A DNA stretch of 32,000 nucleotides, taken from NCBI RefSeq assembly GCF_900155985.1, contig NZ_FTMA01000001.1:1714655-1746654 (forward strand), written 5' to 3'. This document shows, in pieces, positions 1,866 to 32,000 of the stretch (its first letter is position 1; each line of letters opens with the position of its first letter). The notes under the pieces were generated by a model. It searched no databases. It was not told where the DNA came from and was given only the letters and a program-made list of their open reading frames with translations. Both the position numbers and the translations under genes were made by a program. Origin of the DNA: Maribacter ulvicola (GTDB taxonomy: Bacteria > Bacteroidota > Bacteroidia > Flavobacteriales > Flavobacteriaceae).

Positions 1866-1875
1866 TTTTACATTG

Positions 1876-4203: not shown

Positions 4204-4231
4204 AATTATTGTTTGTCAAATTCCAAAATTT

Positions 4232-5293
4232 ATGAGATTTATTCCTTTTTGTATTATAACTTTTGCGGTTTTCAGTCTAATAAGCTGTAAAAGCGAATAT
4301 GTAGCATTAAACCATATTCAGGTAATTGGTAGTCACAACAGTTATAAAATAGCTATAGAAAAACCGTTGTTTGATTACCTGTTCAGGGTAGATGAAGAAA
4401 AATTAAAAAGCCTAGAGTACACTCATATTTCTTTAGAGGAGCAATTGAATTTGGGTTTAAGAAATTTAGAGCTAGATGTTTTTTATGATCCCAAAGGTGG
4501 TCATTTTTCAAAGCCAAAAGGATTGGAAATTGTTAGATCTTTAGGGCAGGAACCTTTAGGGTACGATGAAGAATTAAAGCTTAATCAACCAGGGTTGAAA
4601 ATGTTTCATATTCAGGATATTGATTTTAGAAGTCATGCACTTTTGTTCACAGACGGATTAAAAGCATTGCGTAATTGGTCTGATCAAAACCCCAATCATA
4701 CGCCTATAATCATACTAATAAATACCAAAGATCAAGAAGTACCGCAAACTAGAAAACCGTTAGCTTTTGATAAGAATGCTTTTAATGCGCTTGATAATGA
4801 AATTAGAAGTGTATTTAAAGCTGATCAAATAATTACTCCAGATAATGTTCGCGGAAATTTTGAAACTCTTGAAGAAGCGGTTTTAACTAAAGGATGGCCC
4901 AGTTTAAAAAAGGTAAAGGGTAAATTCTTATTTGTATTGGATGAAAATGAAGCAAAAATCAATACCTATTTAGAAGGAGATGAAACGCAAAAAGAAAGAG
5001 TACTCTTTGTAAATAGTAAAGAGGGAAATGCCAACGCAGCATTTAGAATTGTAAATGACCCGGTTAAAGACTTTGACTATATCAAAGAATTGGTTAAAAA
5101 AGGATATATGGTTCGTACACGTGCAGATGCTGCTACTAAAGAAGCAAGAACTAATAGCTATGATAAATTTGAAAAAGCAAAAGCAACTGGTGCCCAGGTG
5201 ATTTCTACAGATTATTATCTGCCTTCTACTTTATTTAATTCTGATTATAAAGTGATTTTTGAGAATGGAACCTATGAAAAAATTAAAAAGTAA
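4232..5293 (+). CDS. Phosphatidylinositol-specific phospholipase C-like protein (PI-PLC X-domain / Ca-dependent PI-PLC-C1-like), lipoprotein
   Basis: The lipobox signal is FAVFSLISC. It has a VIGSHNSYK motif (the catalytic His region of the PLC X-box TIM barrel) and LELDVFYDP. The size of about 350 aa matches bacterial PI-PLC1-like proteins. It starts 28 nt after the GH92 stop. Confidence 0.6.
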   Translation: MRFIPFCIITFAVFSLISCKSEYVALNHIQVIGSHNSYKIAIEKPLFDYLFRVDEEKLKSLEYTHISLEEQLNLGLRNLELDVFYDPKGGHFSKPKGLEIVRSLGQEPLGYDEELKLNQPGLKMFHIQDIDFRSHALLFTDGLKALRNWSDQNPNHTPIIILINTKDQEVPQTRKPLAFDKNAFNALDNEIRSVFKADQIITPDNVRGNFETLEEAVLTKGWPSLKKVKGKFLFVLDENEAKINTYLEGDETQKERVLFVNSKEGNANAAFRIVNDPVKDFDYIKELVKKGYMVRTRADAATKEARTNSYDKFEKAKATGAQVISTDYYLPSTLFNSDYKVIFENGTYEKIKK

Positions 5294-5556
5294 TTTTAAG
5301 ATAGGAAGAATTGCTTTCACTACAACTAGCCTTCAAATGTCAATGGTATTGGTATAAAAGAAGATTTATTAGGTTTTAATAATGTTGTGTATTGTAAGGT
5401 TGTTATAGCTCATTTTTTACTTGTACTAAGGATGAAAAAGAGGCGAATTGACAGGTAAATACAGGGTTGGGAAACTTAAGTTTAGTAATTACGGCTTAAC
5501 CAAGAACCTTTAAATCTATAGTTTTAGTAAGAGATATTATAGCGAATAGTACGGTT

Positions 5557-5763
5557 TTGGAGTATGATTTTTATACATTTATTTTTGATGAACTCAAGGT
5601 CCGTTTACCGCCGGTTACAACTTACGATTTACATGCAGGTGTGAGCGTGCTTTATACCATTGCTATTACTGTTGCCATTTCCGTAATTGTTGGCTTTACA
5701 CTAAAGGGTGTAGTTAAGAATGAAAAAAGAATTTGCTGGAAAGTGCGCCAGTTTTTCAACTAA
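5557..5763 (+). CDS. Hypothetical small membrane protein (doubtful)
   Basis: This is a 68-codon ORF with a TTG start. It has one hydrophobic segment (VSVLYTIAITVAISVIVGFTL). I recognise no family and see no obvious RBS or promoter. It lies inside a 560-bp gap. Confidence 0.2.
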   Translation: MEYDFYTFIFDELKVRLPPVTTYDLHAGVSVLYTIAITVAISVIVGFTLKGVVKNEKRICWKVRQFFN

Positions 5764-5907
5764 ATAAATGATAAATCAAGATGTTAGGTGTACTTTAATA
5801 AAAGGTATAACAGGTTCAGTTATCTTGAATGATCAAGTAGAGAAAGATTTACAAGTATGGAAAAAGAGTTATGCGTTTACAAAAGAAACGTTCAAAAAAT
5901 AAAAATA

Positions 5908-7749
5908 ATGTCAATGAGATCAATAGGTAAGTTTCTATGTGTATTTCCTTTGATATTTATATGTTCATGTTCTAACAATAAGGGGAAAGAGTTGGCGAAT
6001 GTGAAAATCGCCTTCATTGCAGATGCACATTTTCAAGATATATATGCACATTTTGAAGATGCCGATTATAAAGGTATTGAGAATCCCAAAACTGGTGATT
6101 TTGTAAATATTAGAACAATGAATGCGCAATTACAATCTACTAGAATATTCAATGAAAATTATTTTGCTTTTATAGAGGCTTTAGATGACATTGTAGCAAG
6201 GGGAATAAAATATGTGGCATTGCCTGGAGATTTTAGTGATGACGGGCAACCCATACACGTAAAAGGATTACGCAAAATTTTGGATCAATACGCTAAAGAT
6301 CATGATATTTTATTTTTTGCAACGACAGGTAATCATGATCCTGTAAAACCATTTGCCCATGATGCCGGTAAGACAGATTTTTTGGGCAAGGGAGGTAGAG
6401 AGCAAATTATAACAAGTGTTGAAGATAAAAATAGCGCAGATGTAGATGGGCGATTAAAACCTATAATAACTTCAGAAATTCAAAAATGGGGCTATAAGGA
6501 TATACTGAACGAAATGTCTGCTTTTGGGTTTTATCCGCAGAAGGATTATATCTATTGGGAAACACCTTTTACGAAGTATACTTATGATAATTATAGTTAT
6601 AATAAGGCAGAAAGGGCATCAGTTTTAGACCAAAGAACATACGCCATAGATGCATTTAATAAACAACCGGATGCAAGCTATCTAGTAGAGCCGGTAGAAG
6701 GTGTTTGGCTTTTGGCCATTGACGCTAATGTATATATGCCCAATAAAGAATTAACAAAAGTATCTAACGATCCAAAAGATTTTTCAGGGGCAAGTATTGG
6801 TTATAATAATGTCTTGTTGCAGAAAACGCATTTAATTGCTTGGGTGAAAAAAGTAGCTGAACTAGCGAAGAAAAAAGCCAAGGTTTTAGTTGCATTTAGC
6901 CATTACCCTATGGTAGATTTTAATGATGATGCTTCAGAAGAAATGAAACAGTTTTTTGGTCCAGGAAAAATGCAACTACACCGGGTACCAAAAGAAGAAG
7001 TAGCATCAATTTTTGCCGATGCTGGAATACAAATTCATTTTGGAGGGCATATGCATATTAATGATACGGGGGTGAGAAAAAGTAAGGAAGGGAATACATT
7101 ATTTAATATTCAGACCCCTTCACTTGCAGCTTATGCGCCTGCATATAAAATATTAACAATTAAATCCAGGTCAGTATTTGAAATAGAAACCGTGGTGGTA
7201 GAAAAGGCTAAAAACTTCAACAGCTTATTTTCTTTGTATGAGCAAGAACATAAATTTAGACAGCGTACAGGAGCTAAATTAAACTGGAATAAAGCTATTT
7301 TAACTTCTAAAAATTATATGGAGTTTACTCAATGGCATTTAAAAGAACTAGTACGCTTGCGTTTTTTGCCAGAAGATTGGTCTAAAGAATTTACAGAAGA
7401 GTTTATAAGTAAAACAGGTTTTGACCTATTAACGTTATCAGAAAATTTGAATGCTGTTAAAACACAGCTATCATCTAAAGAAGTTGTCTTAGATGATTTT
7501 AGAAGCTGGACGGGTTTTGATATGATTTATGATTTTTATAGAATTAGAAGTGCAGATGAGCTGGCTTTTTCAGATATAGCCGAGTCTAGATTATTGCAGT
7601 ATAAAATGGTCTGTCAACAATTAAAAAAATCTACTAATGTAAATTACAGAATTTGGGCTGAAATTTTTGATAAAAGTAGTAAGGGCAAACCTTCTGATCA
7701 TTTCAAAATAGATTTGAATACAGATTCTATAAGTAGGTTGTCACCTTAA
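5908..7749 (+). CDS. Calcineurin-like metallophosphoesterase, lipoprotein (substrate unknown)
   Basis: All five metallophosphoesterase motifs are present in order: IADAHFQD (DxH), LPGDFSDDG (GDxxDxG), TTGNHD (GNHD), FSHYP (H) and GGHMH (GHxH). I prefer the start at ATG 5908 (MSMRSIGKFLCVFPLIFICSC, a lipobox signal) over the upstream ATG at 5857 used in the ORF track. Confidence 0.85.
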   Translation: MSMRSIGKFLCVFPLIFICSCSNNKGKELANVKIAFIADAHFQDIYAHFEDADYKGIENPKTGDFVNIRTMNAQLQSTRIFNENYFAFIEALDDIVARGIKYVALPGDFSDDGQPIHVKGLRKILDQYAKDHDILFFATTGNHDPVKPFAHDAGKTDFLGKGGREQIITSVEDKNSADVDGRLKPIITSEIQKWGYKDILNEMSAFGFYPQKDYIYWETPFTKYTYDNYSYNKAERASVLDQRTYAIDAFNKQPDASYLVEPVEGVWLLAIDANVYMPNKELTKVSNDPKDFSGASIGYNNVLLQKTHLIAWVKKVAELAKKKAKVLVAFSHYPMVDFNDDASEEMKQFFGPGKMQLHRVPKEEVASIFADAGIQIHFGGHMHINDTGVRKSKEGNTLFNIQTPSLAAYAPAYKILTIKSRSVFEIETVVVEKAKNFNSLFSLYEQEHKFRQRTGAKLNWNKAILTSKNYMEFTQWHLKELVRLRFLPEDWSKEFTEEFISKTGFDLLTLSENLNAVKTQLSSKEVVLDDFRSWTGFDMIYDFYRIRSADELAFSDIAESRLLQYKMVCQQLKKSTNVNYRIWAEIFDKSSKGKPSDHFKIDLNTDSISRLSP

Positions 7750-7824
7750 AATAAAAATAATTTATCATGGATTACCGCTTTTTAATCTTATAAAAAAACG
7801 TCACTCAACCACTTAAAACAATCA

Positions 7825-10800
7825 ATGCGATATATTTTTAGTGTATTAATAAGCATCTTGTTCTTCATTAATAGCTTGGTTGCGCAAGATATTAAATTTG
7901 AGCACTATAATGATGACAGTGGATTGTCTCATAATGCTGTACGCCATATTGTTCAAGATAAACATGGGTTTTTATGGCTAGGTACTTTTGCAGGTTTAAA
8001 CAGGTTTGATGGTTACGAGTTTAAATCTTATTTAAGCTCATCAACAGCAAAAAATAAGTTATATAATGATGATATAACCGATCTAGAACTTGATGAAGAC
8101 TCTAATAGCCTTTGGATCGGTACCAGAAAGGGACTGTCACTTTTTAAAACAGATACTCAGTTGTTTACAACATATTTGCCTAGCAAAGATGATGAAAATA
8201 GCCTGCCAGAAGCGGAAATTAGATCGGTTTTAGTAGATAAATTCAAAAAAGTATGGGTGGGGACAAAAAACAGCGGACTCTATAAATTTAATCCAGAGAC
8301 CCATGTTTTTAAAAGAGTTGAATTAAAGAATCTGAATTATATAAAAGAAATATTCGAAGACAAAAACGGAGATATTTGGGTAGGTAGTTATGAGTTTGGT
8401 GGTGTTGCAAAGTTAACTTTAGATAATAGAGGTGAAATTGCCAGCAAATTTTATTATGATTTGCCCATACCAAATTCAATAGAGAAGAACCCATATTTAA
8501 ATTTTATTTATGAAGATGCCAAGGCAGCTATTTTTGTTGGTACTAGAGAGGGTTTGTATAAGTTAGACAAGACTACAAATGAATTTGTACACCTAGGCAT
8601 TGAGGATGCCAAAATAAAGGATAGTTTAGGACCCTATTTTTTATCTGTAGTACGGGCCACGGATGGCAAATATTGGTTAGGTACTTTAGGGGGTTTAATT
8701 GTTTGCGATCAATTGGAAGATATTCCGTCTGGTAATTTTAAATGGCATTACTCCGTATTATCAGATGATACATCGTTAGTTGATAATTTAGTGTCGGCTT
8801 TATTTTTTGATACTTCCGGTGTACTGTGGGTGGGTACAGAAGACGGACTAGATAAATATGATCCCTATAAGAATCAATTCAATATCAACAAAGATATTTC
8901 TAAACATATTAACAATCAAGCCCCTAGAATTCGTGGTTTTGCAAAAACATTTGATGGACAGCTAATTGTAGCCACTAGGCATAATGGACTTTTTATCTCG
9001 AATAAAGAACATTTTGTACCGCTTTATAATAACCAAAAAGATATTGCAAGTATTTATTCTAATGACGGAATTACTTTTTATTGCGGTTTGTGGAACGGCA
9101 AGGTGTTGGTATATGATTATATGAAGAATACATCAAAAGAGATACAGATGGGTTTTGAGCAATCGCCCATATTTGCTTTTGAAAATATTGGGGAGAATCA
9201 ATTGTTGGTAGGGTCTTTTGGTGAAGGGGCAGTGATCTTAAATACCAAAAGTCTTAAGAAAGAGAAAAATACCGAAGTGATGTTAAGTGGCTATCAAATT
9301 AATGAAATAGTCAAAGAAGATGATCATAGTATTTGGTTTGCAACAGAATCTGGCGTTGTCCATTATATGACAGACAAAAATAAGACTGAATATTTTACAT
9401 CATCGGTAAAACCAGAAGAAGGTTTGCCCCATGATAATGTAAGTGATATCATGTTCGATAATAAAAATAGGTTATGGGCGGCAACTAGAAATGGAATAAG
9501 TAGGTTCAATTTCGATAACCAAAAATTTATGCCCTTACAGGAACCTAAAGAATTAAAAGGAAAATGGGTGACAGATATGTTAACCGATGCAAATGGTGAT
9601 ATCTGGTTTAATATGAATAGCAATGGTGTAGCTAGGTTAAAATCCAATTTAGAAGACTACAAGGTTTACGATGTTAAAAGTGGTAATAGGCTAGATGTTT
9701 TCAGTTCTAGTGGGTTCTATAGTTTTGAAGACTCTACTATTTATTTGGGTGGTAAGAATGGTATTATTTATTTTTCCCCAAATAAAATTAGTGAGAATAG
9801 CCTAGCGGAAAAACCTATGATTACCGAGTTTAAAATACAGAACGAAGTCATAAATCCAGGTTCAGAAATTAATGGTCAAGTTCCTTTAAAGAGAAATTTG
9901 AACGAAACACATGAAGTTATTTTAGACTATAAGAATAGAAATTTTTCTTTTCAATTCTCCACACCATCCTACGTAAATGAAAAATTGAACAAGTTTGAAT
10001 ATAAACTTGAAGGTTTTGATGAAAACTGGATTTCAACTACCAGTAATTCACGCACCGTACAGTATACGAACCTGTATCCCGGAGATTATACCTTTAAAAT
10101 AAAATCTAGTAACAGTGATGGTTTCTGGAGTGATGTTAATTCATATAAAATAACCATAACACCTCCTTTTTGGCTAACATACCAGGCGCTACTAGTGTTT
10201 ATTGCTTCTTTGATCCTAATAATATATTTAGTAAGAAAAGAAATGAAAAACAGACAGCGGTTAAGGCAAGAACTAGTTACTGAAAAAGTACTTAGGGAAA
10301 GAGATATTAAGCTTAATAATGAGAAACTTCGTTTTTTTACCAACATCTCTCATGAACTTAGAACACCATTAACCTTAATTCTGGGTCCTGCAAAACAATT
10401 ATTAGAAGAAAGTAACGAGAATAATAGCGCGTATCAAAAAAGTAGATTTAATTTAATTCATCAGAATGCAAATAGACTTTTAAGCTTGGTGAACCAGGTA
10501 CTAGATTTTAGAAAGGCACAAAGAGGAGAGTTAAAACTTAAGGTTTCTAAGACCGATATATTTTTATTTACCACAAATACTTTTGAGTTTTTTAAAGAGT
10601 TTGCCTTTAATAAACAAATTGAGCTTACTATCCATAGCGAGGTGGAATCATTATTTGGTTGGGTGGATAGAGATAAATTAGATAAAATACTTTACAATCT
10701 TTTGTCTAACGCAATTAAGTTTACCAACAAATATGGACATGTAAACCTGTCTATTAAATGTAAAGAAGACAATGGTAAAATATTGGTGATTAAGGTGAGC

Positions 10801-19600: not shown

Positions 19601-20070
19601 TTTTCAAGAATATTTGCGCCAGGTAATGGGGTGCCGTCTTTATCTGTAACTAAACCGGTAACCACTTGTTGTACCTGTTTTATTTTCCCTAAGACAGCGT
19701 CTGGTTTTTTATTCAATAAAATAGCGCCTTCTTTAGAAAAGGTATATTCGATATCGCCAAATGACAAACTTTTTTTCAATAGTTCACTGGCGTTGATCCG
19801 TCCTTTCTTTACGTGTACTTTAGGGGCATTCGTAAATAAATCGGACCGGTAAATGAAAGCGTGATCCGTCTGTTTTTGAATTAAATCAAAAATTTCTACT
19901 ACCGTGAGATGTGCATCTGATTTAATCTTAATGGTGGTATTCTGTGAGAAGCCTGTTTTAGGGGCAAACCCAAAGGTTGCAAAGCAGCATAAGAAGATAA
20001 ATGTTCTCATAATAGTAATCAAAAGTTTTTTCCTATATGGTATAGGACTCCCAATAAATTTAGTTTTCAT
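16630..20070 (-). CDS. SusC/RagA-family TonB-dependent transducer with an N-terminal STN signalling domain
   Basis: The protein is 1146 aa. The N-terminal extension (TIKIKSDAHLTVVEIFDLIQKQTDHAFIYRSDL...) is an STN/FecA-like signalling domain. A CarboxypepD_reg domain follows (VTGLVTDKDGTPLPGANILEKGTSNGTQADFDGNFSL). The TonB box/plug is DEVVVVGYGTQKKSDVTGA. The C-terminal beta-barrel ends in ...GVQVEF. An alternative start is at 20010 (MRTFIFLCC...). Confidence 0.95.
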   Translation of the reverse strand: MKTKFIGSPIPYRKKLLITIMRTFIFLCCFATFGFAPKTGFSQNTTIKIKSDAHLTVVEIFDLIQKQTDHAFIYRSDLFTNAPKVHVKKGRINASELLKKSLSFGDIEYTFSKEGAILLNKKPDAVLGKIKQVQQVVTGLVTDKDGTPLPGANILEKGTSNGTQADFDGNFSLDISDPNAILVVSYIGFVTKETTIGNQTEFTILLEEDTQGLDEVVVVGYGTQKKSDVTGAISTVKGEELTQVVTTSPTDALQGRVSGVTVSSSSGSPGAAADVMIRGVGSFGNNQPLYIIDGVQADPYYIDANNIASIEVLKDAASASIYGTRAANGVIIITTKKGKTGKPKVEIGSSISLNTTRNEMELLDADGYVNVHRQMYENAGATLPLYVQNTSNINTDWIDETHRDGQLSLLNVRVSGASDNINYSVGGNFADEKGLLIGSEFSKKGINARLGITKDKLNINTNLTYSETKRRPQTFSLRETYYISPLIPVLDPSKPSGFGFRDGDLPDHRNPVGENKYLEQLSKTKYFLGNVSLDYEVLNGLTAKANLAYSNLSTSSSNFNKPFQVRDVQEEGREFAFTSEYNSELKRINQEYTLNYTVDLNKHSINLLAGYQRIAEPFKRTYIQAEGYKIIRTVDGESINEEKVPANILDPNFKTLDAFTDGTFAGEGTNAEYNLVSQFGRLNYSFDNKYLLQASARRDGSSKFGKNNQYGVFPSFALGWKISEEKFMKNQDFFNFMKLRYSWGQAGNDSALGYYDYVALIAQGKSQNDGGYVFGSPQTSFLGGIARDLQNDNLQWETNTSSNIGLDFNAMNNKLKGSINYYNGTTEDLLITRVVSPSAGVNSPIVNVGEFKNNGVEFEFGYVNKDNEFHYSAFATFTTINSEVTKLSNEDQTLYGIGLLFGSDHFVNQTKIGYEPGAYFLPVADGIFQSEEEIASHSLNGNPIQPSASPGDIRFVDQNGDGEINSDDETYQGSALPKYEYSLSLGSEYKGFDLNIFLQGVGGNKIYNGNDFTLMSLDTGRNFRTEALNAWTPTNTNTTIPRAVLGDPNRNNRASTRFLEDGDYIRIKSIQIGYTLPKDIIEGAGMSRLRLYASGQNLFTFTNYNGLDPEVSSSIAGQNQGILSRGIDRTLYPKSKSFILGVQVEF

Positions 20071-20119
20071 AAATTTGGTTGTTTTAGTTAGTTAAATTTT
20101 TAATTAATTAATCATGCTA

Positions 20120-20169
20120 GGGGATGGAGCTTTAAATTGTCCACATCTAAACTCCATTCCCATTTTTTT
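20120..20169 (+). terminator. Intrinsic-terminator-like hairpin plus T7 tract, oriented for the + strand (antisense to the susC leader)
   Basis: The stem is GGGGATGGAG (20120-20129) with CTCCATTCCC (20152-20161): 10 bp including one G:U on the + strand. It extends by TTTA/TAAA after a 1-nt bulge and is followed by A then TTTTTTT (20163-20169). On the minus strand the same stem carries an A:C mismatch and has no trailing U-tract. Confidence 0.45.
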
Positions 20170-20173
20170 AAGG

Positions 20174-21325
20174 TTACTTCACTATTATTTTTTTTCCTAT
20201 TGTTTCAAATTTTGCTTCGTTAGTGTTTTCAATAATTAAAAGTATATCGTCTAAATTTTGTTTTTTATTGAATACACCATTGAACTTTAAATTTTTAATA
20301 TGTGTATTTTCGATAATTACCTCTATATCATACCAGCGAGAAAGTACTAGCATGATTTCCTTTAGGGGTTTATCTTTAAAACTGAAGAAACCACTTTTCC
20401 ATGAAACCTCGTTATATACATCTACTTGAGCAACATTAATCTCATGGTTTTCCATATTAAATTGTGATTGTTGCCCAGGTAGTAGGTTTTCAGAACTAGC
20501 CCCGCTTTTGATCAGTACACTACCTTCAACTAAAGTGGTTTTAATTATAGCATCTTCTTTATACGCGTTAATATTGAATTCTGTTCCTAGAACGTCAATT
20601 TCTTGCTCGTGGGTAGAAACTATAAAATGGTTGCCGTTATGTTCTGTACTTGAAGACACTTCAAAATAGGCCTCTCCGTATACAAGTTCTACTTTTCTTG
20701 CCTGATCGCTTGTAAATGAAACGGGATACCGAAGTTGTGTTTCAGAATTTAGCCAGACCTTTGTGCCATCGGCCAGTATGATAAAAAATTCACCTCCTCT
20801 TGGTATTGTTAGAACATTGTATGCTATAGTGTTCTTGCTAGATTTTGAGCCCGATTTATAAATAAGTTTTTCTCCATTACTTGAAAGATTATTGGCTTTA
20901 TAGTGTGCTCCCTTGCCTAGAATGATATTAGAACCATCTTCAAGAGTCAATGTAGCTTTATCGGTACCTATATTAATGATGTCTTCTGCTACTATAATTG
21001 GAGTGTTTTGAACTTCATGCTTTTCTTTCATAAGAAAAGGCAATGCACCTAGAATAAAAATAGCGGCAATTGCAGCTGCATATTTCCAGTAGTTAAATCC
21101 GTATCTGTCCTTTTTCACAAACTGAGGTTTTAAGTTTGTTTTGCTTGAAATTTTCTCCCACCCTTTTTGAGGATCAATGGCATCAGGTGATTTTAGAATG
21201 TTTTTTTCTACTTGAGCAAAGTACGCCCGGTGGCTATCCGATTCTAAAAACCACTCGTCAAAAATGAGCTCTTCTTCTTTCGTGAGTGTATTGTTCAGTT
21301 TCTTTAAAATGAGTTTGAACTCCAT
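20174..21325 (-). CDS. FecR-family anti-sigma factor (transmembrane sensor)
   Basis: The protein is 383 aa. It has a cytoplasmic N-terminal anti-sigma segment and a single TM (YAAAIAAIFILGALPFL). The periplasmic FecR domain and a C-terminal DUF4974-like region (FSFKDKPLKEIMLVLSRWYDIEVI) follow. It lies between the ECF sigma gene and the STN-SusC gene. Confidence 0.9.
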   Translation of the reverse strand: MEFKLILKKLNNTLTKEEELIFDEWFLESDSHRAYFAQVEKNILKSPDAIDPQKGWEKISSKTNLKPQFVKKDRYGFNYWKYAAAIAAIFILGALPFLMKEKHEVQNTPIIVAEDIINIGTDKATLTLEDGSNIILGKGAHYKANNLSSNGEKLIYKSGSKSSKNTIAYNVLTIPRGGEFFIILADGTKVWLNSETQLRYPVSFTSDQARKVELVYGEAYFEVSSSTEHNGNHFIVSTHEQEIDVLGTEFNINAYKEDAIIKTTLVEGSVLIKSGASSENLLPGQQSQFNMENHEINVAQVDVYNEVSWKSGFFSFKDKPLKEIMLVLSRWYDIEVIIENTHIKNLKFNGVFNKKQNLDDILLIIENTNEAKFETIGKKIIVK

Positions 21326-21445
21326 AGTTTTATTTTAAGCAACTTATAATTATGACAACAGAATAATTAAAATGGGTGACAATAAAATAAAGAAAATGTA
21401 AAATAAAGGTGTGTTAAAGATGAATTTAGTATTTAAAAGCCTTTT

Positions 21446-22006
21446 TTAATGAAATATTGATAGAAGGATAAGAATGGCGTGTAACAGTTGACCAATTTTT
21501 ATTTTTGCCCGTTTAAGTTGGGTTTTTACGGTATTTACCGAGATTTTAAGTTCTTCCGCAATCTCTGCATACCTGTAATTTTCAAGATATCTCATTTTAA
21601 CGATTACTTGCATTTTTTCTGGTAAGGTATCTATGATATTTAAAAGTTGGTTATGAATTTTATTAGTTGTCTCAATAGTATCTTCATGGTTATATGTATC
21701 GTCTAGTATTGCCTGTAACTCTAAAACTTGTGTGCTATCTGTAATTTTTATAGATTTTAAGAGGTTTAAGCTCTTATTTCTGACCATAGCGTATAAATAA
21801 CCTTTTAATGTAGTATTGATCTCAATGGTATCTGCTTTTTCCCATAAGGTTATGAAAACATCTTGCACCATATCTTCGCTTCGACCCTTATCAAAGAGAT
21901 AGCCATGTGCATAATTGACCAAATCTTCATAAAATTCATAAAAGATTTTTTTGAAGACGAAATGGTTTTTATTTTGTAATTCCTTTAGTTCTGAATTAGT
22001 TTTCAA
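21446..22006 (-). CDS. ECF-type RNA polymerase sigma-70 factor (Bacteroidota expansion family)
   Basis: The protein is 186 aa. Region 2 is DMVQDVFITLWEK and region 4 HTH is RYAEIAEELKISVNTVKTQLKRAK. It lies immediately upstream of fecR. Confidence 0.9.
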   Translation of the reverse strand: MKTNSELKELQNKNHFVFKKIFYEFYEDLVNYAHGYLFDKGRSEDMVQDVFITLWEKADTIEINTTLKGYLYAMVRNKSLNLLKSIKITDSTQVLELQAILDDTYNHEDTIETTNKIHNQLLNIIDTLPEKMQVIVKMRYLENYRYAEIAEELKISVNTVKTQLKRAKIKIGQLLHAILILLSIFH

Positions 22007-22276: not shown

Positions 22277-24319
22277 ATGGACAAAAAAAGTATTCTTTCT
22301 ATTATTCTTATTTTATTATTGTTTGCTTGTAAGCAAAACAAAATTAAAAAGATAGATAGGCCTAATAATAGGGACTACCACGCTTTATACAGTAATATTT
22401 TGAATTTTAGTGGCATTCCAGAAACTAGAATAGATAGAAGTATGTTAATGTTTTCTGATCAAGGAGCATGGTTTGCGTATAGTTTGCCTGATTCCCTAAC
22501 CACCTACGGTGGTTTCTCGGGCCCTTTTTTAATGACCCAGGAAAATGGAGTGTGGATTAGTCCAAATTTAATGCAGTTGAAACTTTCTTATGGTTCTAAA
22601 GAAACAACGGTTATGGATTGGGAAAATAATTTGATACACCAAAAAAGCTATACTAGTCATTTAGAGCAAAAATTTAAGAACAAAGACCTTAGCATAGAAC
22701 AGTCTTTGGTTTATATTTCTGGTCATACTGCCATGCAGCGTATTACCATTACCAATGATGCTGAAGCAGCTCTCACTTTAAATGCTAGTTTTTCAGGAAA
22801 GCTATACAACTCGGGAATTCATGTTACCAAAGATAATGGGATGATCAAACTAAAGTCGTCTAAAAGTGATGCTGTAGGTTACGCACAATTATTGAATATG
22901 CCCAACGATGTTTTCATACAAGATAGTTTATCTTATAAAATTAACTATCAGACGTTTGTTTTACCTTCAAAAAAAGCGAAAGAAATTATAGTATCACAGA
23001 CATTTATTTTTCCAGAATATTCATGGGAAAATGAACAACAGCTCATTTCCAGTATCAACTTTGATTCTGTCTTAAATGCGCGTAAATTGGAAAAGAATAA
23101 TGAGCTGTCAAAGTTGATAGAAAAGAGAAAAGATAACTTTAAAAATGATAAATACGCATCCGTTCTTGCCAAAGCACATTTAACCTTACAGAATAATTGG
23201 CGTATAGCTGCCGGAAAATTACAACATCAAGGTCTTTTTCCAAGCTATCATTATGAATGGTTTCACGGTTTTTGGTCTTGGGACTCTTGGAAACATGCTG
23301 TGGGTCTGTCCTGGTATAATATACCCTTGGCAAAAGATCAAATACGGGCCATGTTCGATTATCAAAATGATGATGGTTTTGTTGTTGATTGTATCTATAG
23401 GGATACAACCATAGAACCTTTTAATTATAGAGATACCAAACCACCACTTGCAGCTTGGGCCGTTGCTGAAATTTTTAAAAAAGATTCAGATGTTGATTTT
23501 ATAAAAGAAATATATCCTAAGCTAAAAAAATATCATTTTTGGTGGTATGCTAAACGTGATCATGATCAAGATGGGCTGTGCGAATATGGGTCTACGGATG
23601 GAACCGTTTTAGCAGCAAAATGGGAAAGTGGTATGGACAACGCCATTCGTTTTGATGATTCTAATATTTTAAAAAATGGAGAAAATGCTTACTCCTTAAA
23701 TCAAGAAAGTATAGACCTAAATGCCTATTTATATGCAGAAAAGTTATACTTGGCAACATTGGCAGAGGCGCTTGGTTATAAAGAAGATGTGGCTATATAT
23801 AAAACAGGAGCAATGATTTTAAAAAAGGCTATTCAGCATCAATTTTATGATACTAGTGATGGGTGGTTTTATGATACCAATTTAGAGGGCACCTCTTTTA
23901 TAAAAGGAGCAGGGAGTGAAGGTTGGATTCCTCTTTGGGCAAACGCCGCTACCCAAGAACAAGCCATTACGGTAAAAAACAAAATGATGGATCCAGAGAA
24001 GTTCTTTACCAAAGTCCCTTTTCAGACGATGGCGAAAGATCACCCAAAATTTGACCCTTTAAATGGATATTGGCGCGGACCAAACTGGCTGGATCAAGCT
24101 TATTTTGGTGTAAAAGGATTGCGCAATTATGGTTTTGGTGCAGAGGCAGATCTTGCAACCGAACAAATTATTGAAGGAGCAGAAGGGTTATTGGACGATG
24201 GAAAAGCCATAAGAGAAAATTATCACCCTATAACTGGAGAAGGGCGCGAAGCTAGAAATTTTAGCTGGAGCGCAGCACATATTATCATGCTTTTAACTGA
24301 AGATAAGAATGAATTATAA
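22277..24319 (+). CDS. GH63/MGH1-like (alpha/alpha)6-barrel glycoside hydrolase (alpha-glucosidase or mannosylglycerate-hydrolase-like), lipoprotein
   Basis: The lipobox signal is LILLLFACKQ. Motifs typical of the GH63/GH37-type clan are present: GFWSWDSWKHA, CEYGS.DG...AKWESGMDNA and YWRGPNWLDQAY. An N-terminal beta-sandwich precedes the C-terminal barrel, as in YgjK-like enzymes. The gene overlaps the next gene by 11 nt. Confidence 0.75.
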   Translation: MDKKSILSIILILLLFACKQNKIKKIDRPNNRDYHALYSNILNFSGIPETRIDRSMLMFSDQGAWFAYSLPDSLTTYGGFSGPFLMTQENGVWISPNLMQLKLSYGSKETTVMDWENNLIHQKSYTSHLEQKFKNKDLSIEQSLVYISGHTAMQRITITNDAEAALTLNASFSGKLYNSGIHVTKDNGMIKLKSSKSDAVGYAQLLNMPNDVFIQDSLSYKINYQTFVLPSKKAKEIIVSQTFIFPEYSWENEQQLISSINFDSVLNARKLEKNNELSKLIEKRKDNFKNDKYASVLAKAHLTLQNNWRIAAGKLQHQGLFPSYHYEWFHGFWSWDSWKHAVGLSWYNIPLAKDQIRAMFDYQNDDGFVVDCIYRDTTIEPFNYRDTKPPLAAWAVAEIFKKDSDVDFIKEIYPKLKKYHFWWYAKRDHDQDGLCEYGSTDGTVLAAKWESGMDNAIRFDDSNILKNGENAYSLNQESIDLNAYLYAEKLYLATLAEALGYKEDVAIYKTGAMILKKAIQHQFYDTSDGWFYDTNLEGTSFIKGAGSEGWIPLWANAATQEQAITVKNKMMDPEKFFTKVPFQTMAKDHPKFDPLNGYWRGPNWLDQAYFGVKGLRNYGFGAEADLATEQIIEGAEGLLDDGKAIRENYHPITGEGREARNFSWSAAHIIMLLTEDKNEL

Positions 24320-27300
24320 CTCAATTAAAATATCAACACAACAAGCTGAGAAAATTGCATTCAATTTTTTTAACGTTACCGGAAACGTAACGGTGTTACC
24401 TGGAGAAGTTGATTTCAATTATAGAATTAAAGTGACCAATAGTGAAGGCTATATTTTAAAAATATCACGACCTAATGAAGATGTAGATTATTTAGATTAT
24501 CAACAGAAACTTTTACAGTATGTGGCACAAATTGGAAATAATTTAATATGCCCAAGAGTTATTACCGATATTAATGGAGCATCTATTTCTTTATATATAG
24601 ATCAACATGGAAACCAAAGAATGGTACGTTTGCTATCTTGGGTTTCGGGCAGAATTTGGAGCAATGTTAATCCACAATTAAATCATCTTAGATTTAGTTT
24701 AGGTGAGCAATGTGGTAAACTGACCCAAGCGCTACAGGGATTTGACCATGAGCAAGCCCATAGAAAATTTGATTGGGATATAGCACAATCGCTTTGGACC
24801 AAAAAACACCTTAATTTATTTAAAAATGAAAAAAAGAAAATTATTGCTTTTTTCCAAAATGAATTTGAAACCTCACTTACCAAATACGAAAAACTACGTA
24901 GCGCTGTAGTTCATAACGATGCAAATGATAACAATGTAGTGGTGTCTAATGAACTTATTAACCCCAAAGTCAAGGCCGTAATTGATTATGGTGATGCCGT
25001 TTACACTCAAATAATCAATGATCTTGCCATAGCGTGCGCCTATGCCATTATGGGGCACAATGACCCTTTAGAAGCCGCATTGCCTATTGTGAAAGGATAC
25101 CATACTACGTTTCCGTTACAGGAGACTGAATTGGAACATTTGTACAATGCCATAGCAATGCGATTAGTAATTTCAGTTACTAAAGCGGCTCTAAATAAAA
25201 TAGAAGAACCAGATAATGCCTATCTATTGGTGAGCGAAAAACCAGCATGGGAAGTTCTTGAAAAATGGTATGCTACAAATTCAGATTTTGCCTTGTATTG
25301 TTTTAGACAAGTTTGTGGTTTTACAGCCCACCCAGATCAAACTAAATTCAGCAAATGGGCAGCTAAGAACGATTTTAACACTTGCAATTTATTCCCAAAC
25401 CTAAACAAAGAGGGGATACATTTATTAGATCTAAGTGTTTCTAGTACTTGGCTAGGACATCAACAAGATTTTAATGATCTGGATTATTTTCAGTATAAAA
25501 TTAAAGGGTTGCAAAAAAGATATCCCCAAAAAATTATGGCAGGTGGGTATCTTGAGCCACGTGCATTATATACTTCATCAGAATATGATAAAATAGGTAA
25601 TAATGGAAGGGAAAGTAGAACCGTTCATTTGGGGATAGATTTTTGGTTGCCTGCTAATACACCGGTTCATGCTCTTTTACAAGGAGAAATAGTGGTTGTA
25701 GAAAATGATGCCGGATTTAAGGAATACGGTGGACTTATCATTTTAAAACATACTGTAGGCACCCTAGTGTTCTATACCTTATACGGTCATTTGTCCTTGG
25801 TTTCATTACAAGGCAAAGAGGTGGGGCAAATTCTTGAAAAAAATGAATGTATCGGTTTCTTGGGCACACCCGAAGAAAATGGAAGTTGGTCACCTCATCT
25901 TCATTTTCAGATAATGTTGTCTATGTTGGGGGATAAAAAAGATTTTCCAGGTGTGGCCTATTACAAGCAAATAGCGGTTTGGAAAAGTATTTGTCCGGAT
26001 CCAAATTTACTGTTTAAATCCAATGAGCTTCAAAAAAGCACACCAATTTCAAATACCGATTTAATTAAATATAGAAAAGAACATTTAGGAAAAAGCCTTA
26101 GTCTTCAATACAAAATACCCATTAAAATGGTACGAGGTTCTGGACAATATTTAATAGATGAATATGGTCAAAAATACTTGGATACGGTGAACAATGTTGC
26201 CCATGTGGGACATGAGAATTATGCCGTTGTAAAGTCAGGTCGAGAACAAATGAGTCTGCTTAATACCAATTCTCGTTACCTACATGATAATATAAACCAA
26301 CTTGCTAAAGAGTTAATTGAAACTTTACCATCAGAATTAAGCGTATTACATTTTGTAAATTCAGGTAGTGAAGCAAATGAACTGGCTATTCGCATGACCA
26401 AAGCTGCTACTGGAGAACAAGATATTATAGCTTCAGAAGTCGGTTACCACGGCAATACCAACATGTGTATTAACATAAGTTCGTATAAATTTGATGGGAA
26501 AGGCGGAAAAGGAGCACCAGAGTATACCCATATTTTTCCACTTCCAGATGCATACAGAGGTAAGTTTAGGGGGCAGGCGTCAGGTGCTAAGTATGCAGAG
26601 GAGGTTCAGGATCAAATAGATAGTATCCATAAGAAAGGGCGTGGTGTTGGAGCTTTTATTATAGAACCTATAATTAGTTGTGGCGGACAAATAGAATTGC
26701 CAGATGGTTTTTTGTCCAAGGCCTATGCAATGGTGAGAGCAGCTGGCGGACTCTGTATTTCAGATGAGGTTCAAGTGGGTTGTGGTCGTCTTGGGAAGAC
26801 TTTTTGGGGTTTTCAATTGCACAATGTAGTACCTGATATTATAACTATTGGTAAGCCTTTAGGTAATGGCCATCCTCTGGCAGCAGTAGCTTGTACCCAA
26901 GAAGTAGCAGAAAAATTCGCAAATGGTATGGAGTATTTTAACACCTTTGGCGGTAACCCGGTTTCATGTGCAATTGGTACGGAAGTATTGCGAACGGTAA
27001 AGCGAGAAAAACTACAAGAACACTCCTTTGTTGTTGGTGAGTTCCTTAAAAACAAACTTCACCTTTTAGCTAAGGATTTTCCTATCATTGGTAATGTACG
27101 CGGGCAAGGACTTTTTCTGGGGTTTGAGTTGGTTGACATTGCAATGAATCCTCTTGCTGATCAAGCAGATTATTTGGCTAACCGCATGAAGGATCATGGT
27201 ATTTTAATGAGTATTGACGGACCAGATCATAATGTCATTAAAATAAAACCTCCCATTATATTTACACAAGAGAATGCAGAAGAATTGATTTTATATTTAA

Positions 27301-27335
27301 AAAAGATACTAGCAGAAGATTTTATGAAACTTTAA
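24309..27335 (+). CDS. Tri-domain fusion: APH/hydroxylysine-kinase-like phosphotransferase, M23 metallopeptidase domain, and class-III aminotransferase-fold phospho-lyase (ETNPPL/PHYKPL family)
   Basis: The protein is 1008 aa with no signal peptide. The kinase domain (aa ~20-320) has YILKISRPN, the Brenner motif VVHNDANDNN and the metal-binding IDYGD. The M23 domain (aa ~410-540) has HLGID (HxxxD, H440/D444) and HLHFQ (HxH, H530/H532). The PLP domain (aa ~585-1005) has LLNTNSRYLHDNI, FVNSGSEANELA, ISDEVQVGCGRLGKTFWGFQ and TIGKPLGNGHPLAAV (the PLP lysine). These closely match human AGXT2L1/AGXT2L2 as I recall them. Confidence 0.9.
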   Translation: MNYNSIKISTQQAEKIAFNFFNVTGNVTVLPGEVDFNYRIKVTNSEGYILKISRPNEDVDYLDYQQKLLQYVAQIGNNLICPRVITDINGASISLYIDQHGNQRMVRLLSWVSGRIWSNVNPQLNHLRFSLGEQCGKLTQALQGFDHEQAHRKFDWDIAQSLWTKKHLNLFKNEKKKIIAFFQNEFETSLTKYEKLRSAVVHNDANDNNVVVSNELINPKVKAVIDYGDAVYTQIINDLAIACAYAIMGHNDPLEAALPIVKGYHTTFPLQETELEHLYNAIAMRLVISVTKAALNKIEEPDNAYLLVSEKPAWEVLEKWYATNSDFALYCFRQVCGFTAHPDQTKFSKWAAKNDFNTCNLFPNLNKEGIHLLDLSVSSTWLGHQQDFNDLDYFQYKIKGLQKRYPQKIMAGGYLEPRALYTSSEYDKIGNNGRESRTVHLGIDFWLPANTPVHALLQGEIVVVENDAGFKEYGGLIILKHTVGTLVFYTLYGHLSLVSLQGKEVGQILEKNECIGFLGTPEENGSWSPHLHFQIMLSMLGDKKDFPGVAYYKQIAVWKSICPDPNLLFKSNELQKSTPISNTDLIKYRKEHLGKSLSLQYKIPIKMVRGSGQYLIDEYGQKYLDTVNNVAHVGHENYAVVKSGREQMSLLNTNSRYLHDNINQLAKELIETLPSELSVLHFVNSGSEANELAIRMTKAATGEQDIIASEVGYHGNTNMCINISSYKFDGKGGKGAPEYTHIFPLPDAYRGKFRGQASGAKYAEEVQDQIDSIHKKGRGVGAFIIEPIISCGGQIELPDGFLSKAYAMVRAAGGLCISDEVQVGCGRLGKTFWGFQLHNVVPDIITIGKPLGNGHPLAAVACTQEVAEKFANGMEYFNTFGGNPVSCAIGTEVLRTVKREKLQEHSFVVGEFLKNKLHLLAKDFPIIGNVRGQGLFLGFELVDIAMNPLADQADYLANRMKDHGILMSIDGPDHNVIKIKPPIIFTQENAEELILYLKKILAEDFMKL

Positions 27336-30482
<3,147 letters not shown>

Positions 30483-30989: not shown

Positions 30990-32000
30990 TTAATTTCTAA
31001 CCGTAGATTTTCTAATATTCAATACACCATCCATAATAATAGTTTCTTGATCAGAATTGCCGTTATTAATATGTTTTAATAGAAGCTCTGCTGCTTTTTT
31101 GCCTATTTCGTGGGTAGGTTGCCGTACGCTGCTTAACTGTGGCGTTATAAGTTCTGCCATACGCGTTTCGGTAAAACCCATTACGGTAATATCTTCCGGA
31201 ACTCTATAACCACTGTCCTTTAAAATTTTTATCGCTCCCATGGCCACATGGTCGTTTTCACAAAATAAAGCATCTGGTAGGTTCTGGCTATTAATTAATT
31301 CTTTAACGGTATCAATACCTTGGTTAGAAAACAGTCCGGTTTCTATAATCTTATAATTTTCTTTTGGAATGTTATGCTTTTTTAATGCTCGGATAAAACC
31401 TTTTATGCGTTCACCAGAAACACATAAATTCTTGTGTCCCGCTAAATGAAAAATTCTCTTGTTACCTTGTGCAATAAGATGTTCTGTGGCAAAAAAGCTC
31501 CATTTTTCATTATCGAACAAAATTTTAGAAGCTTTTAGGCTTTTTTCCACCCTGTTCATGAATACAATAGGGAACCCGTTGTCTCTTTGTTTAAGGTAAT
31601 AATCCATATTATCGTTCGCTGCTGTAGGTGCTATGATCAATCCATCCATCATGTTTTGCATCAGGGTTTTAACATTTGCTAACTCCTGTTCCTGATTTTC
31701 GTCTGACTGCATAACCAAAATTTGGTACCCTTGCGATGTGAAAATATCTTGTATTGCAATTATTATTTCTGAATAAAATTCATTTATAAATTCTGGAACT
31801 ACGATACCAATATTAAAGGTTTTCTTCTGACTTAGTTTTTTTGCGATCGGATTTGGAAAATACCCCATCTCTTCTGCTGTTTTTAATATAAGCTCTTTGG
31901 TTTCTTTTTTGATATCATATTTATCGTTAAAAGCTCTTGATACCGAAGAAATTGAAACATTCAATTTTTTAGCGACATCTTTTATGGTAACGTATTTCAT
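30990..32000 (-). CDS. LacI/GalR-family transcriptional repressor
   Basis: The protein is 336 aa. The N-terminal HTH is MKYVTIKDVAKKLNVSISSVSRAFN, followed by a periplasmic-binding-protein-like sugar-binding core. The start codon occupies 31998-32000, exactly at the window edge, so its promoter and operator are outside the window. Confidence 0.9.
   Translation of the reverse strand: MKYVTIKDVAKKLNVSISSVSRAFNDKYDIKKETKELILKTAEEMGYFPNPIAKKLSQKKTFNIGIVVPEFINEFYSEIIIAIQDIFTSQGYQILVMQSDENQEQELANVKTLMQNMMDGLIIAPTAANDNMDYYLKQRDNGFPIVFMNRVEKSLKASKILFDNEKWSFFATEHLIAQGNKRIFHLAGHKNLCVSGERIKGFIRALKKHNIPKENYKIIETGLFSNQGIDTVKELINSQNLPDALFCENDHVAMGAIKILKDSGYRVPEDITVMGFTETRMAELITPQLSSVRQPTHEIGKKAAELLLKHINNGNSDQETIIMDGVLNIRKSTVRN

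Follow-up and report, generated by a model that had tools for sequence, protein, structure and literature searches.

Why should a zinc peptidase of family M23 lie between a kinase and a pyridoxal phosphate (PLP)-dependent lyase in a protein that carries no export signal? This question was raised by an open reading frame (ORF) of Maribacter ulvicola, found within a 32,000-nucleotide (nt) stretch of contig NZ_FTMA01000001.1 (positions 1,714,655 to 1,746,654), the whole of which is called the window here. The explanation favored, with a probability of about 0.6, is that this kinase/M23/phospho-lyase fusion would form the cytoplasmic end of an operon for the utilization of glucosyl-galactosyl-hydroxylysine, and would catabolize 5-hydroxylysine (Hyl) derived from collagen. 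What appears to be new is the operon logic, conserved across phyla and tied to the hydroxylysine glycoside of collagen, together with a series of proteins in which the M23 module is present, degenerate or absent. Literature searches on a Glc-Gal-Hyl locus in bacteria, on Sinorhizobium and hydroxylysine, and on hydroxylysine in combination with M23 returned nothing relevant. The features of the fusion, in window coordinates and amino acids (aa), are the following:

24309..27335, + strand, fusion ORF, ATG start, 1008 aa, kinase / M23 / phospho-lyase, predicted cytoplasmic (ORF call and translation)
24309..25328, + strand, APH-fold kinase module, aa 1-340 (Pfam APH at aa 27-265, 7e-22)
24912-24935, + strand, kinase catalytic residues H202, D204 and N209 in the motif HNDANDNN (aa 202-209)
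24984-24986, + strand, kinase D226, metal-binding Asp, in the motif IDYGD (aa 225-229)
25329..26048, + strand, M23 module, aa 341-580 (Pfam core Peptidase_M23 at aa 439-536, nt 25623-25916, 2.4e-15)
25626-25628, 25638-25640 and 25902-25904, + strand, predicted M23 zinc ligands H440, D444 and H532 (alignment to lysostaphin, LytM and others)
25788-25790 and 25896-25898, + strand, predicted M23 catalytic residues H494 and H530 (alignment to lysostaphin, LytM and others)
Within the M23 module, + strand, family-specific shell E416, Y421, R437, Y473, N524, W527 and G548/V549 (conservation statistics)
26049..27335, + strand, lyase module, class-III-aminotransferase-fold ammoniophospho-lyase, aa 581-1008 (Pfam Aminotran_3 at aa 602-1001, 3e-73)
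26853-26855 and 26763-26765, + strand, lyase PLP lysine K849, in GKPLGNG (aa 848-854), and D819

An earlier description, made from the DNA letters and called here the sequence-only reading, had proposed a fusion of three enzymes with all active sites apparently intact. This was borne out by the Pfam domains and by the conservation of the catalytic residues, and the motifs HNDANDNN, IDYGD, HLGID (aa 440-444) and HLH (aa 530-532) and the context of the PLP lysine were all found where it had placed them. Its list of M23 motifs was right as regards HLGID and HLH, but a fifth canonical residue, H494 in 'LYGHLS', had been overlooked. In the kinase module, the catalytic HxDxxxxN loop and the metal-binding Asp of the APH fold are conserved (H202, D204, N209 and D226), and D204, N209 and D226 were invariant in alignments A1 and A2, the latter comprising 101 sequences down to ~41 % identity; a phmmer search of this module against the PDB gave no match. 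K849 and D819 of the lyase module were likewise invariant in both alignments. The best PDB match of the lyase module was human ETNPPL, 6tor (431.6 bits, 6.7e-128), followed by the Arthrobacter phospholyase 5g4i (300.8 bits), while other chains (decarboxylases, racemases and transaminases) did not exceed 167 bits. The same order was obtained by structural comparison with Foldseek (6tor: 48 % identity, root-mean-square deviation 1.5 Å, TM-score on target 0.94; 5g4i: 37 % identity, TM-score on target 0.93). By both sequence and structure, the lyase module is closer to characterized phospho-lyases than to transaminases. ETNPPL and the Arthrobacter aurescens enzyme (A1RDF1) share the PLP lysine and the aspartate with it; neither is fused to another enzyme, and the substrate of 6TOR is phosphoethanolamine, whereas the context described below points to 5-phosphohydroxylysine for the fusion.

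The M23 module agreed with family M23 in every sequence and fold characteristic. Its Peptidase_M23 score was 56.9 bits against a Pfam (PF01551) gathering score of 28.7. H440 and D444 (HxxxD) align with 'HYGVD' of lysostaphin, H494 with the catalytic His of its 'YMHLS', and H530 and H532 (HxH) with its 'PHLHFQ'; the best solved sequence relatives were lysostaphin, TagE/Csd, pseudoalterin, LytM and zoocin A. All 34 significant Foldseek matches in the PDB for the model of this module (aa 341-600; mean predicted local distance difference test, pLDDT, 87.9) were M23/LytM domains, with probability 1.00 and TM-scores on target of 0.67 or less. The five catalytic or zinc-binding residues (H440, D444, H494, H530 and H532) were invariant in A2, were kept in 105 of 123 full-length representatives of 50 %-identity clusters, and were present together with the shell in all of the full-length orthologues taken from the retrieved genome and metagenome loci (118/118). 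These counts uphold the earlier view that the module is no degenerate linker.

The same description had called attention to the missing signal peptide, and the hydropathy scan of the full protein agreed with it, revealing neither a signal peptide nor a transmembrane segment. The peak 12-aa N-terminal hydropathy was 0.97 for the fusion versus 3.40 and 2.93 for the two flanking glycosidases (GH63 and GH2, respectively), both of which carry lipoprotein-type leaders that the fusion lacks, and the highest 19-aa window in the whole fusion was 1.35. The extracytoplasmic site that is usual, though not defining, for family M23 does not apply to the fusion, in which the M23 module is joined to ATP- and PLP-dependent enzymes. 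As judged from its sequence, the fusion is a genuine enzyme, predicted to be cytoplasmic, with a kinase, an M23 peptidase that looks intact and a phospho-lyase in one chain. Its full-length AlphaFold2 model reached a pLDDT of 92.2 and a predicted TM-score (pTM) of 0.90.

With which genes does this enzyme work? The genes surrounding the fusion in the window are the following:

22277..24319, + strand, GH63 YgjK-like alpha-glucosidase with lipoprotein-type signal peptide (Pfam MGH1-like_GH, YgjK_N)
27345..30482, + strand, GH2 LacZ-type beta-galactosidase with lipoprotein-type signal peptide (Pfam GH2 domains)
16630..20070, - strand, SusC-like TonB-dependent transporter (Pfam Plug, CarboxypepD_reg)
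15073..16614, - strand, SusD-family binding lipoprotein (Pfam SusD_RagB, SusD-like_3)
20174..21325, - strand, FecR-type anti-sigma factor (Pfam FecR, FecR_C)
21446..22006, - strand, extracytoplasmic function (ECF) sigma factor (Pfam Sigma70_r2, Sigma70_r4_2, Sigma70_ECF)
30990-32000, - strand, LacI-family regulator, downstream of GH2 and extending to the last base of the window

The 3' end of the GH63 gene overlaps the start of the fusion by 11 nt, and the GH2 gene begins 9 nt past the stop codon of the fusion. The block of SusC, SusD, FecR and ECF sigma genes (15073-22006) is divergent from this GH63 operon. A SusC/SusD pair, glycoside hydrolases and a dedicated regulator, syntenic in other genera, give the locus the composition of a polysaccharide utilization locus (PUL). 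The best solved relative of the window GH63 was YgjK of Escherichia coli (1e-74), and the GH2 enzyme scored 1002 bits with the NCBIfam model beta_gal_Bga2A versus a cutoff of 999; a literature search for 'Bga2A' yielded only bifidobacterial and agarose-related papers. The scan for sigma-70 promoters and terminators between 21900 and 31100 performed no better than on shuffled sequence and was uninformative on operon boundaries. Of the 80 Flavobacteriaceae loci, only 2 had a LacI homologue close to the fusion, and LacI genes also flank the Sinorhizobium meliloti cluster described below.

The substrate was read as 5-hydroxylysine because sister operons whose fusion lacks the M23 module encode enzymes of the aminoadipate route, which would act on the product of the lyase. 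One is an aldehyde dehydrogenase that passes NCBIfam NF050084, L-piperidine-6-carboxylate dehydrogenase (829.7 bits versus a cutoff of 730). The other two are a 2-oxoadipate dioxygenase/decarboxylase of the HGLS family and a D-2-hydroxyglutarate dehydrogenase of the YdiJ type, the latter being cut off where the locus ends. In the lysine catabolism of Pseudomonas putida, 2-aminoadipate, 2-oxoadipate and D-2-hydroxyglutarate are processed by AmaB, HglS and YdiJ-type enzymes. The matching enzymes of the M23-less sister operons would be the expected sink for the lyase product, although the P. putida route enters from lysine and not from hydroxylysine, and its genes are not in the window.

The two-step chemistry proposed for the fusion, yielding 2-aminoadipate semialdehyde, is that of the vertebrate pair HYKK/AGPHD1 and PHYKPL/AGXT2L2, in which an APH-fold kinase is also followed by a class-III-aminotransferase-fold PLP lyase. 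The fusion differs from this pair in being a single polypeptide with an M23 module in between, and in being bacterial and encoded in an operon with exported glycosidases. The abstract of an article by Veiga-da-Cunha et al. in 2012 (J Biol Chem 287:7246) is said to mention bacterial 'bi- or tri-functional' homologues. The sequence-only reading had placed the M23 module between two consecutive enzymes of an amino-alcohol route; from the operon context, this route can now be specified as leading from 5-hydroxylysine to 2-aminoadipate semialdehyde. According to two reviews, comparative genomics and gene fusion helped to reveal the vertebrate hydroxylysine kinase and ammoniophospho-lyases in 2012 (PMC12138971, PMC5714238).

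The Glc-alpha1,2-Gal-beta-O-Hyl unit of collagen is the only well-known natural hydroxylysine glycoside (PMC8626586). Since its degradation needs an alpha-glucosidase and a beta-galactosidase, the locus was read as a glucosyl-galactosyl-hydroxylysine utilization operon. In animals, the alpha-1,2-linked glucose is stripped from Glc-Gal-Hyl by PGGHG (PMC8626586), which has the same activity as that proposed for the GH63 enzyme; it belongs to GH65, clan GH-L, and is therefore an analogue and not a homologue. YgjK has been crystallized with Glc-alpha1,2-Gal (PDB 3W7W), as stated in a preprint (bioRxiv 10.64898/2026.07.01.735942). On homology plus context, the chemistry assigned to the glycosidases, the kinase and the lyase, and with it the reading of hydroxylysine and its glycoside as substrates, is very probably correct.

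The neighborhood of the fusion was counted in 80 genome loci of Flavobacteriaceae. GH63 was directly upstream in 34 and GH2 directly downstream in 36 of them, with intergenic gaps mostly of 0-25 nt. A SusC-like transporter was found in 25/80 loci and in many metagenome loci, and FecR and the ECF sigma factor were syntenic in 16/80 and 15/80, respectively. Glycoside/Leloir or hydroxyproline/prolidase genes lay within 8 kb of the fusion in 53 of the 80. Galactokinase, Gal-1-P uridylyltransferase and an SSF symporter were recurrent neighbors, as was a hydroxyproline-type set of a proline-racemase-family gene, a DAO-family oxidoreductase, an aldehyde dehydrogenase and M24 prolidase-like, M20 and DUF885 genes. 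In a subset of six loci (L030, L040, L060, L072, L074 and L078), the genes downstream of the fusion, at ~11000-18000 in locus coordinates, are those of a GNAT acetyltransferase, an FAD oxidoreductase of the DAO family, a member of the proline racemase family, DUF885 and an aldehyde dehydrogenase, the latter weakly similar to 2,5-dioxovalerate / alpha-ketoglutarate semialdehyde (KGSA) dehydrogenase. By homology, this downstream set looks like a hydroxyproline catabolic set beside the hydroxylysine enzyme.

The association was also tested in the reciprocal direction, from the relatives of GH63 in metagenomes, where 70 loci had room downstream. The fusion adjoined GH63 in 33 of these, and in ~11/70 the order was GH63, a GH2 paralogue and then the fusion. 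The second GH2 of this variant is ~39 % identical to that of the window, and some of these loci have an extra gene of ~1.2 kb before the fusion. Another nine loci (9/70) consisted of SusC, SusD, GH63, a GH42 beta-galactosidase and then the M23-less fusion, a 765-779-aa APH + Aminotran_3 protein. The replacement of GH2 by GH42 was seen in two other lineages.

Moreover, a homologue of 1008 aa with 39 % identity and intact M23 residues is encoded on pSymB of S. meliloti 1021. Its cluster comprises, in this order, LacI, a Lys/Arg/Orn-like binding protein, an amino-acid ATP-binding cassette (ABC) permease, a short-chain dehydrogenase/reductase (SDR), the fusion, a sugar ABC system, a GH63-type (MGH1-like) hydrolase, a second LacI and a GH42 beta-galactosidase. 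The triad of alpha-glucosidase-type enzyme, beta-galactosidase and kinase/lyase survives the change of transporter (SusCD to ABC), of galactosidase family (GH2 to GH42) and of phylum (Bacteroidota to Alphaproteobacteria). The SDR gene lies directly upstream of the fusion (11208-11921, locus coordinates), and a beta-lactamase-family serine hydrolase gene follows GH42 (24236-25240); either could provide an extra step, for instance the oxidation of the semialdehyde or the hydrolysis of a peptide or amide.

In the pathway proposed, collagen glycopeptides or free Glc-alpha1,2-Gal-beta-O-Hyl would be imported by SusC/SusD under the control of the ECF sigma and anti-sigma factors. The exported GH63 alpha-glucosidase would strip the glucose and the exported GH2 beta-galactosidase the galactose, and Hyl or a short Hyl-containing peptide would enter the cytoplasm. 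There, the M23 module, as a lysostaphin/LytM-type zinc peptidase, could trim the Gly-rich remnant and free the Hyl. The 5-hydroxyl group of Hyl would then be phosphorylated by the APH-fold kinase, and phosphate and ammonia would be eliminated by the PLP lyase. The resulting 2-aminoadipate semialdehyde, in equilibrium with piperideine-6-carboxylate, would be led through the aminoadipate / 2-oxoadipate / D-2-hydroxyglutarate route toward 2-oxoglutarate. The Hyl of collagen lies in the context Gly-X-Hyl-Gly, and glycyl bonds are those preferred by M23 enzymes. Trimming of a Gly-rich remnant is the best remaining candidate role for the M23 module, with odds that fall just short of even. The most ambitious form of this proposal, in which the M23 module acts as a peptidase in the cytoplasm and frees Hyl from peptides of collagen, the fusion is a self-contained three-step machine from peptide to Hyl, phospho-Hyl and aminoadipate semialdehyde, and the set of GH63, fusion and beta-galactosidase is a widespread bacterial pathway not described before, is offered tentatively, as the balance of probability lies against it.

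Several findings weigh against the collagen hydroxylysine pathway or parts of it. The closest solved relative of the lyase is an ethanolamine-phosphate enzyme, the best in-vitro substrate reported for YgjK in the same preprint is nigerose (bioRxiv 10.64898/2026.07.01.735942), and the GH63-type enzyme of S. meliloti is only 24 % identical to that of the window. No enzymology of any bacterial member of the family was found in the literature. No conserved partners or glycosidases were seen near the fusion in contigs of Chloroflexota (Anaerolineales), Acidobacteriota (Blastocatellia), Desulfobacterota-like bacteria, Saprospiraceae and Cyclobacteriaceae, and the Glc-Gal link is therefore lineage-specific. 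As regards the M23 module, two-domain fusions occupy the same operon type without it, and no compensating peptidase was seen within 7 kb of these M23-less fusions, so that peptide trimming is not essential to the pathway. Finally, among 141 representatives, namely those with both flanking domains, 26 retain a degenerate M23, and this speaks for a structural contribution of some kind in addition. Such a contribution is likely, because degenerate copies are retained and because the pTM of 0.90 implies a fixed packing in the model.

Peptidase genes often adjoin the fusion in the glycosidase-free contexts. A gene for an M61 glycyl aminopeptidase was found divergent from and upstream of the fusion in a Cyclobacteriaceae metagenome-assembled genome (MAG; locus L085, 7918-9816), and M28 and YkuD genes were found upstream of it in a Blastocatellia MAG (locus L083, 7012-9979).

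Is the M23 module kept for its active site or for its bulk? Of the same 141 representatives, 106 had an intact M23 (H440/D444/H494/H530/H532) and 9 were without the module; about 75 % of lineages thus retain the catalytic residues. Forms that are not intact occur here and there, mostly with intact forms as nearest neighbors; therefore, the loss of M23 has been repeated and independent. Y421, Y473, W527, N524, R437, G548, V549, E416 and H481 lose their conservation together with the catalytic residues (Fisher p 2e-11 to 4e-27, and between 1e-20 and 1e-27 for the first seven of them), whereas the best p for columns outside aa 400-565 was ~3e-4, and no column of the kinase or the lyase strongly co-varied with M23 status in the column-wise test over the representatives. 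In the two-domain protein, aa ~348-577 are cleanly excised. The all-or-none loss of the shell, the repeated loss of the module and the indifference of the flanking columns together mark M23 as a catalytic module that is autonomous, under selection in most lineages and dispensable for kinase-lyase function. The comparative evidence from these sequences gives strong support to the view that the site is functional.

The alternative that survives best holds that the M23 module is non-catalytic, either as a zinc-stabilized structural hub or as a substrate-binding module that fixes the kinase-lyase geometry or mediates oligomerization. The fixed inter-domain arrangement implied by the full-length pTM is in line with it, as are the 26 representatives that retained rather than deleted the domain after losing catalytic residues, some of which keep the three zinc ligands without H494. 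Non-catalytic LytM domains do exist (EnvC and DipM) and are among the structural neighbors of the module. However, these known cases lose the catalytic residues, which here are invariant in A2 and present in all 118 orthologues, and the surrounding shell is conserved only alongside them. Nine representative lineages and the GH42 operons do without the module, and no kinase or lyase column tracks its status. A purely non-catalytic M23 is thus judged unlikely. The sequence-only reading had gone further in suggesting a scaffold that channels the phosphorylated intermediate. As an obligatory element, such a scaffold was rejected as unsupported, since M23-less fusions fill the same operon slot, the module has been lost repeatedly and independently, and the flanking columns are indifferent to it. 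In several of the degenerate forms (P0131, P0135, P0208, P0218 and P0248), the five positions read HDNHH or HDGHH, only the catalytic H494 being lost; such variants could be zinc-binding and substrate-binding but inactive.

A somewhat weaker alternative accepts an active M23 module and gives it another substrate, which could be muropeptides in the cytoplasm, or hydroxylysine or lysine in the form of an N-acyl or isopeptide derivative. In that case, co-regulation or another upstream step would account for the fusion. It is general knowledge that M23 enzymes cut peptidoglycan cross-bridges, many of them on the epsilon-amino group of lysine, and the closest relatives of the module are lysostaphin, LytM and Csd-type enzymes. 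The gene also stands alone in distant phyla, away from any collagen-related context, and W527, N524 and Y421 replace canonical residues of the groove. On the other side, no cell-wall recycling genes were present in any context examined, and the recurrent neighbors are related to collagen or peptides (prolidase-like M24, M20, DUF885, the hydroxyproline route and, once, M61). The relatives lysostaphin, LytM, zoocin A and pseudoalterin (MEROPS M23) are secreted Gly-Gly or Gly-X endopeptidases. The module has in common with the lysostaphin/LytM group the HxxxD and HxH motifs, the catalytic His and the beta-sheet fold; unlike them, it is cytoplasmic, lacks a targeting domain and has an enzyme of metabolism on either side, and W527, N524, Y421 and a DFPGV motif after HxH are specific to its own family. 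Peptidoglycan is implausible as its substrate, and a different substrate altogether is considered a minor possibility, slightly behind the non-catalytic one.

A third alternative concerns the flanking modules, which would act on ethanolamine and phosphoethanolamine or on another amino alcohol instead of hydroxylysine. Human ETNPPL and then Arthrobacter 5g4i are the best solved relatives of the lyase, and genes for a phosphatidylinositol-specific phospholipase C (PI-PLC) and for inositol metabolism lie upstream in the window, within a separate PUL-like block (51-14561):

51-1865, GH115-like gene
1873-4203, GH92 alpha-mannosidase
4232-5293, Ca-dependent PI-PLC
5857-7749, metallophosphoesterase
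7825-11859, hybrid two-component regulator
12012-12890, myo-inositol oxygenase (MIOX)
12984-14561, SSF symporter

Nevertheless, the top match to ETNPPL does not discriminate between substrates, because no PHYKPL structure was among the PDB matches of the lyase module. The partners of the kinase and lyase in other operons include a piperideine-6-carboxylate dehydrogenase above its curated cutoff, an HGLS-family enzyme, a YdiJ-type dehydrogenase, a Lys/Arg/Orn-like binding protein and an Lrp/AsnC regulator, and the pair of alpha-glucosidase and beta-galactosidase fits the only known Hyl glycoside. The block containing PI-PLC and MIOX is not syntenic with the fusion in other loci. An ethanolamine route is improbable on these grounds. 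A phosphoethanolamine or glycosylphosphatidylinositol (GPI)-anchor reading, drawn from the upstream PI-PLC, MIOX and GH92 genes, was rejected for the same want of synteny. The composition of the block itself suggests the use of an inositol-phosphate-linked glycan.

The last alternative, that an assembly or sequencing error has joined two or three genes, found no supporting point and is virtually impossible, given a 100 % identical NCBI protein of M. ulvicola, uninterrupted full-length orthologues in 80 genome and 39 metagenome loci, ~130 distinct and divergent 50 %-identity clusters of the same architecture that align end to end, a confident single-chain model and a GC content uniform over the three modules. 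An artefactual fusion, which the sequence-only reading had itself considered, was rejected on the strength of the identical protein and the unbroken orthologues.

The same description had surmised that similar three-domain proteins exist in other bacteria and had proposed a search by domain architecture. The fusion proved to be widespread, with more than 2500 matching clusters at 90 % identity, and spans many phyla. On profile alignment, the three-domain architecture is an already catalogued family, NCBIfam PRK06148 ('hypothetical protein'), to which the fusion aligns end to end (aa 6-1004 on profile positions 9-1011 of 1015), with a score of 1114.2 that is 14 bits under the curated cutoff of 1128. 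PRK06148 shares the three-domain architecture and has no functional name; the entry PRK06149 is labelled 'aminotransferase'. Members occur in Bacteroidota, Alphaproteobacteria (Kiloniella, Sinorhizobium, Rhizobium and Shinella), Chloroflexota, Acidobacteriota and Desulfobacterota, and their database names are only 'aminotransferase class III-fold PLP-dependent enzyme' or 'peptidase M23'.

If the collagen hydroxylysine pathway holds true, Flavobacteriaceae, other Bacteroidota and Sinorhizobium share a pathway that consumes glucosyl-galactosyl-hydroxylysine. No animal protein is more abundant than collagen, whose Glc-Gal-hydroxylysine units withstand ordinary proteolysis, and glucosyl-galactosyl-hydroxylysine is largely excreted by animals. 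A defined bacterial route would account for the recovery of carbon and nitrogen from these units by marine Flavobacteriaceae and soil rhizobia. The enzymes and operons have been pinned down in Maribacter, a culturable marine genus, and in the genetically tractable S. meliloti, and the prediction is directly testable in them. An intact M23 module working in the cytoplasm within a metabolic enzyme would widen the role of this family of cell-wall and matrix hydrolases, and its presence, degeneration or absence in otherwise equivalent proteins constitutes a natural experiment on what the module contributes. The pathway would also provide natural substrates for GH63 enzymes of the YgjK type and possibly for the Ebg beta-galactosidase.

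The latter point concerns E. coli, where an echo of the pathway may be seen in ebgAC-ygjIJK. In strain K-12 (NC_000913.3, 3221466-3231239), ebgR-ebgA-ebgC-ygjI-ygjJ-ygjK are co-oriented. This block encodes the GH2 'evolved' beta-galactosidase, the amino-acid-permease-family transporter YgjI, YgjJ, for which there was no Pfam match, and the GH63 enzyme YgjK. It has the same pairing of GH63 and GH2 as the fusion locus, and no kinase-lyase gene is present there. The shared pairing hints at a Glc-alpha1,2-Gal-beta-linked amino acid as the natural substrate of this cluster.

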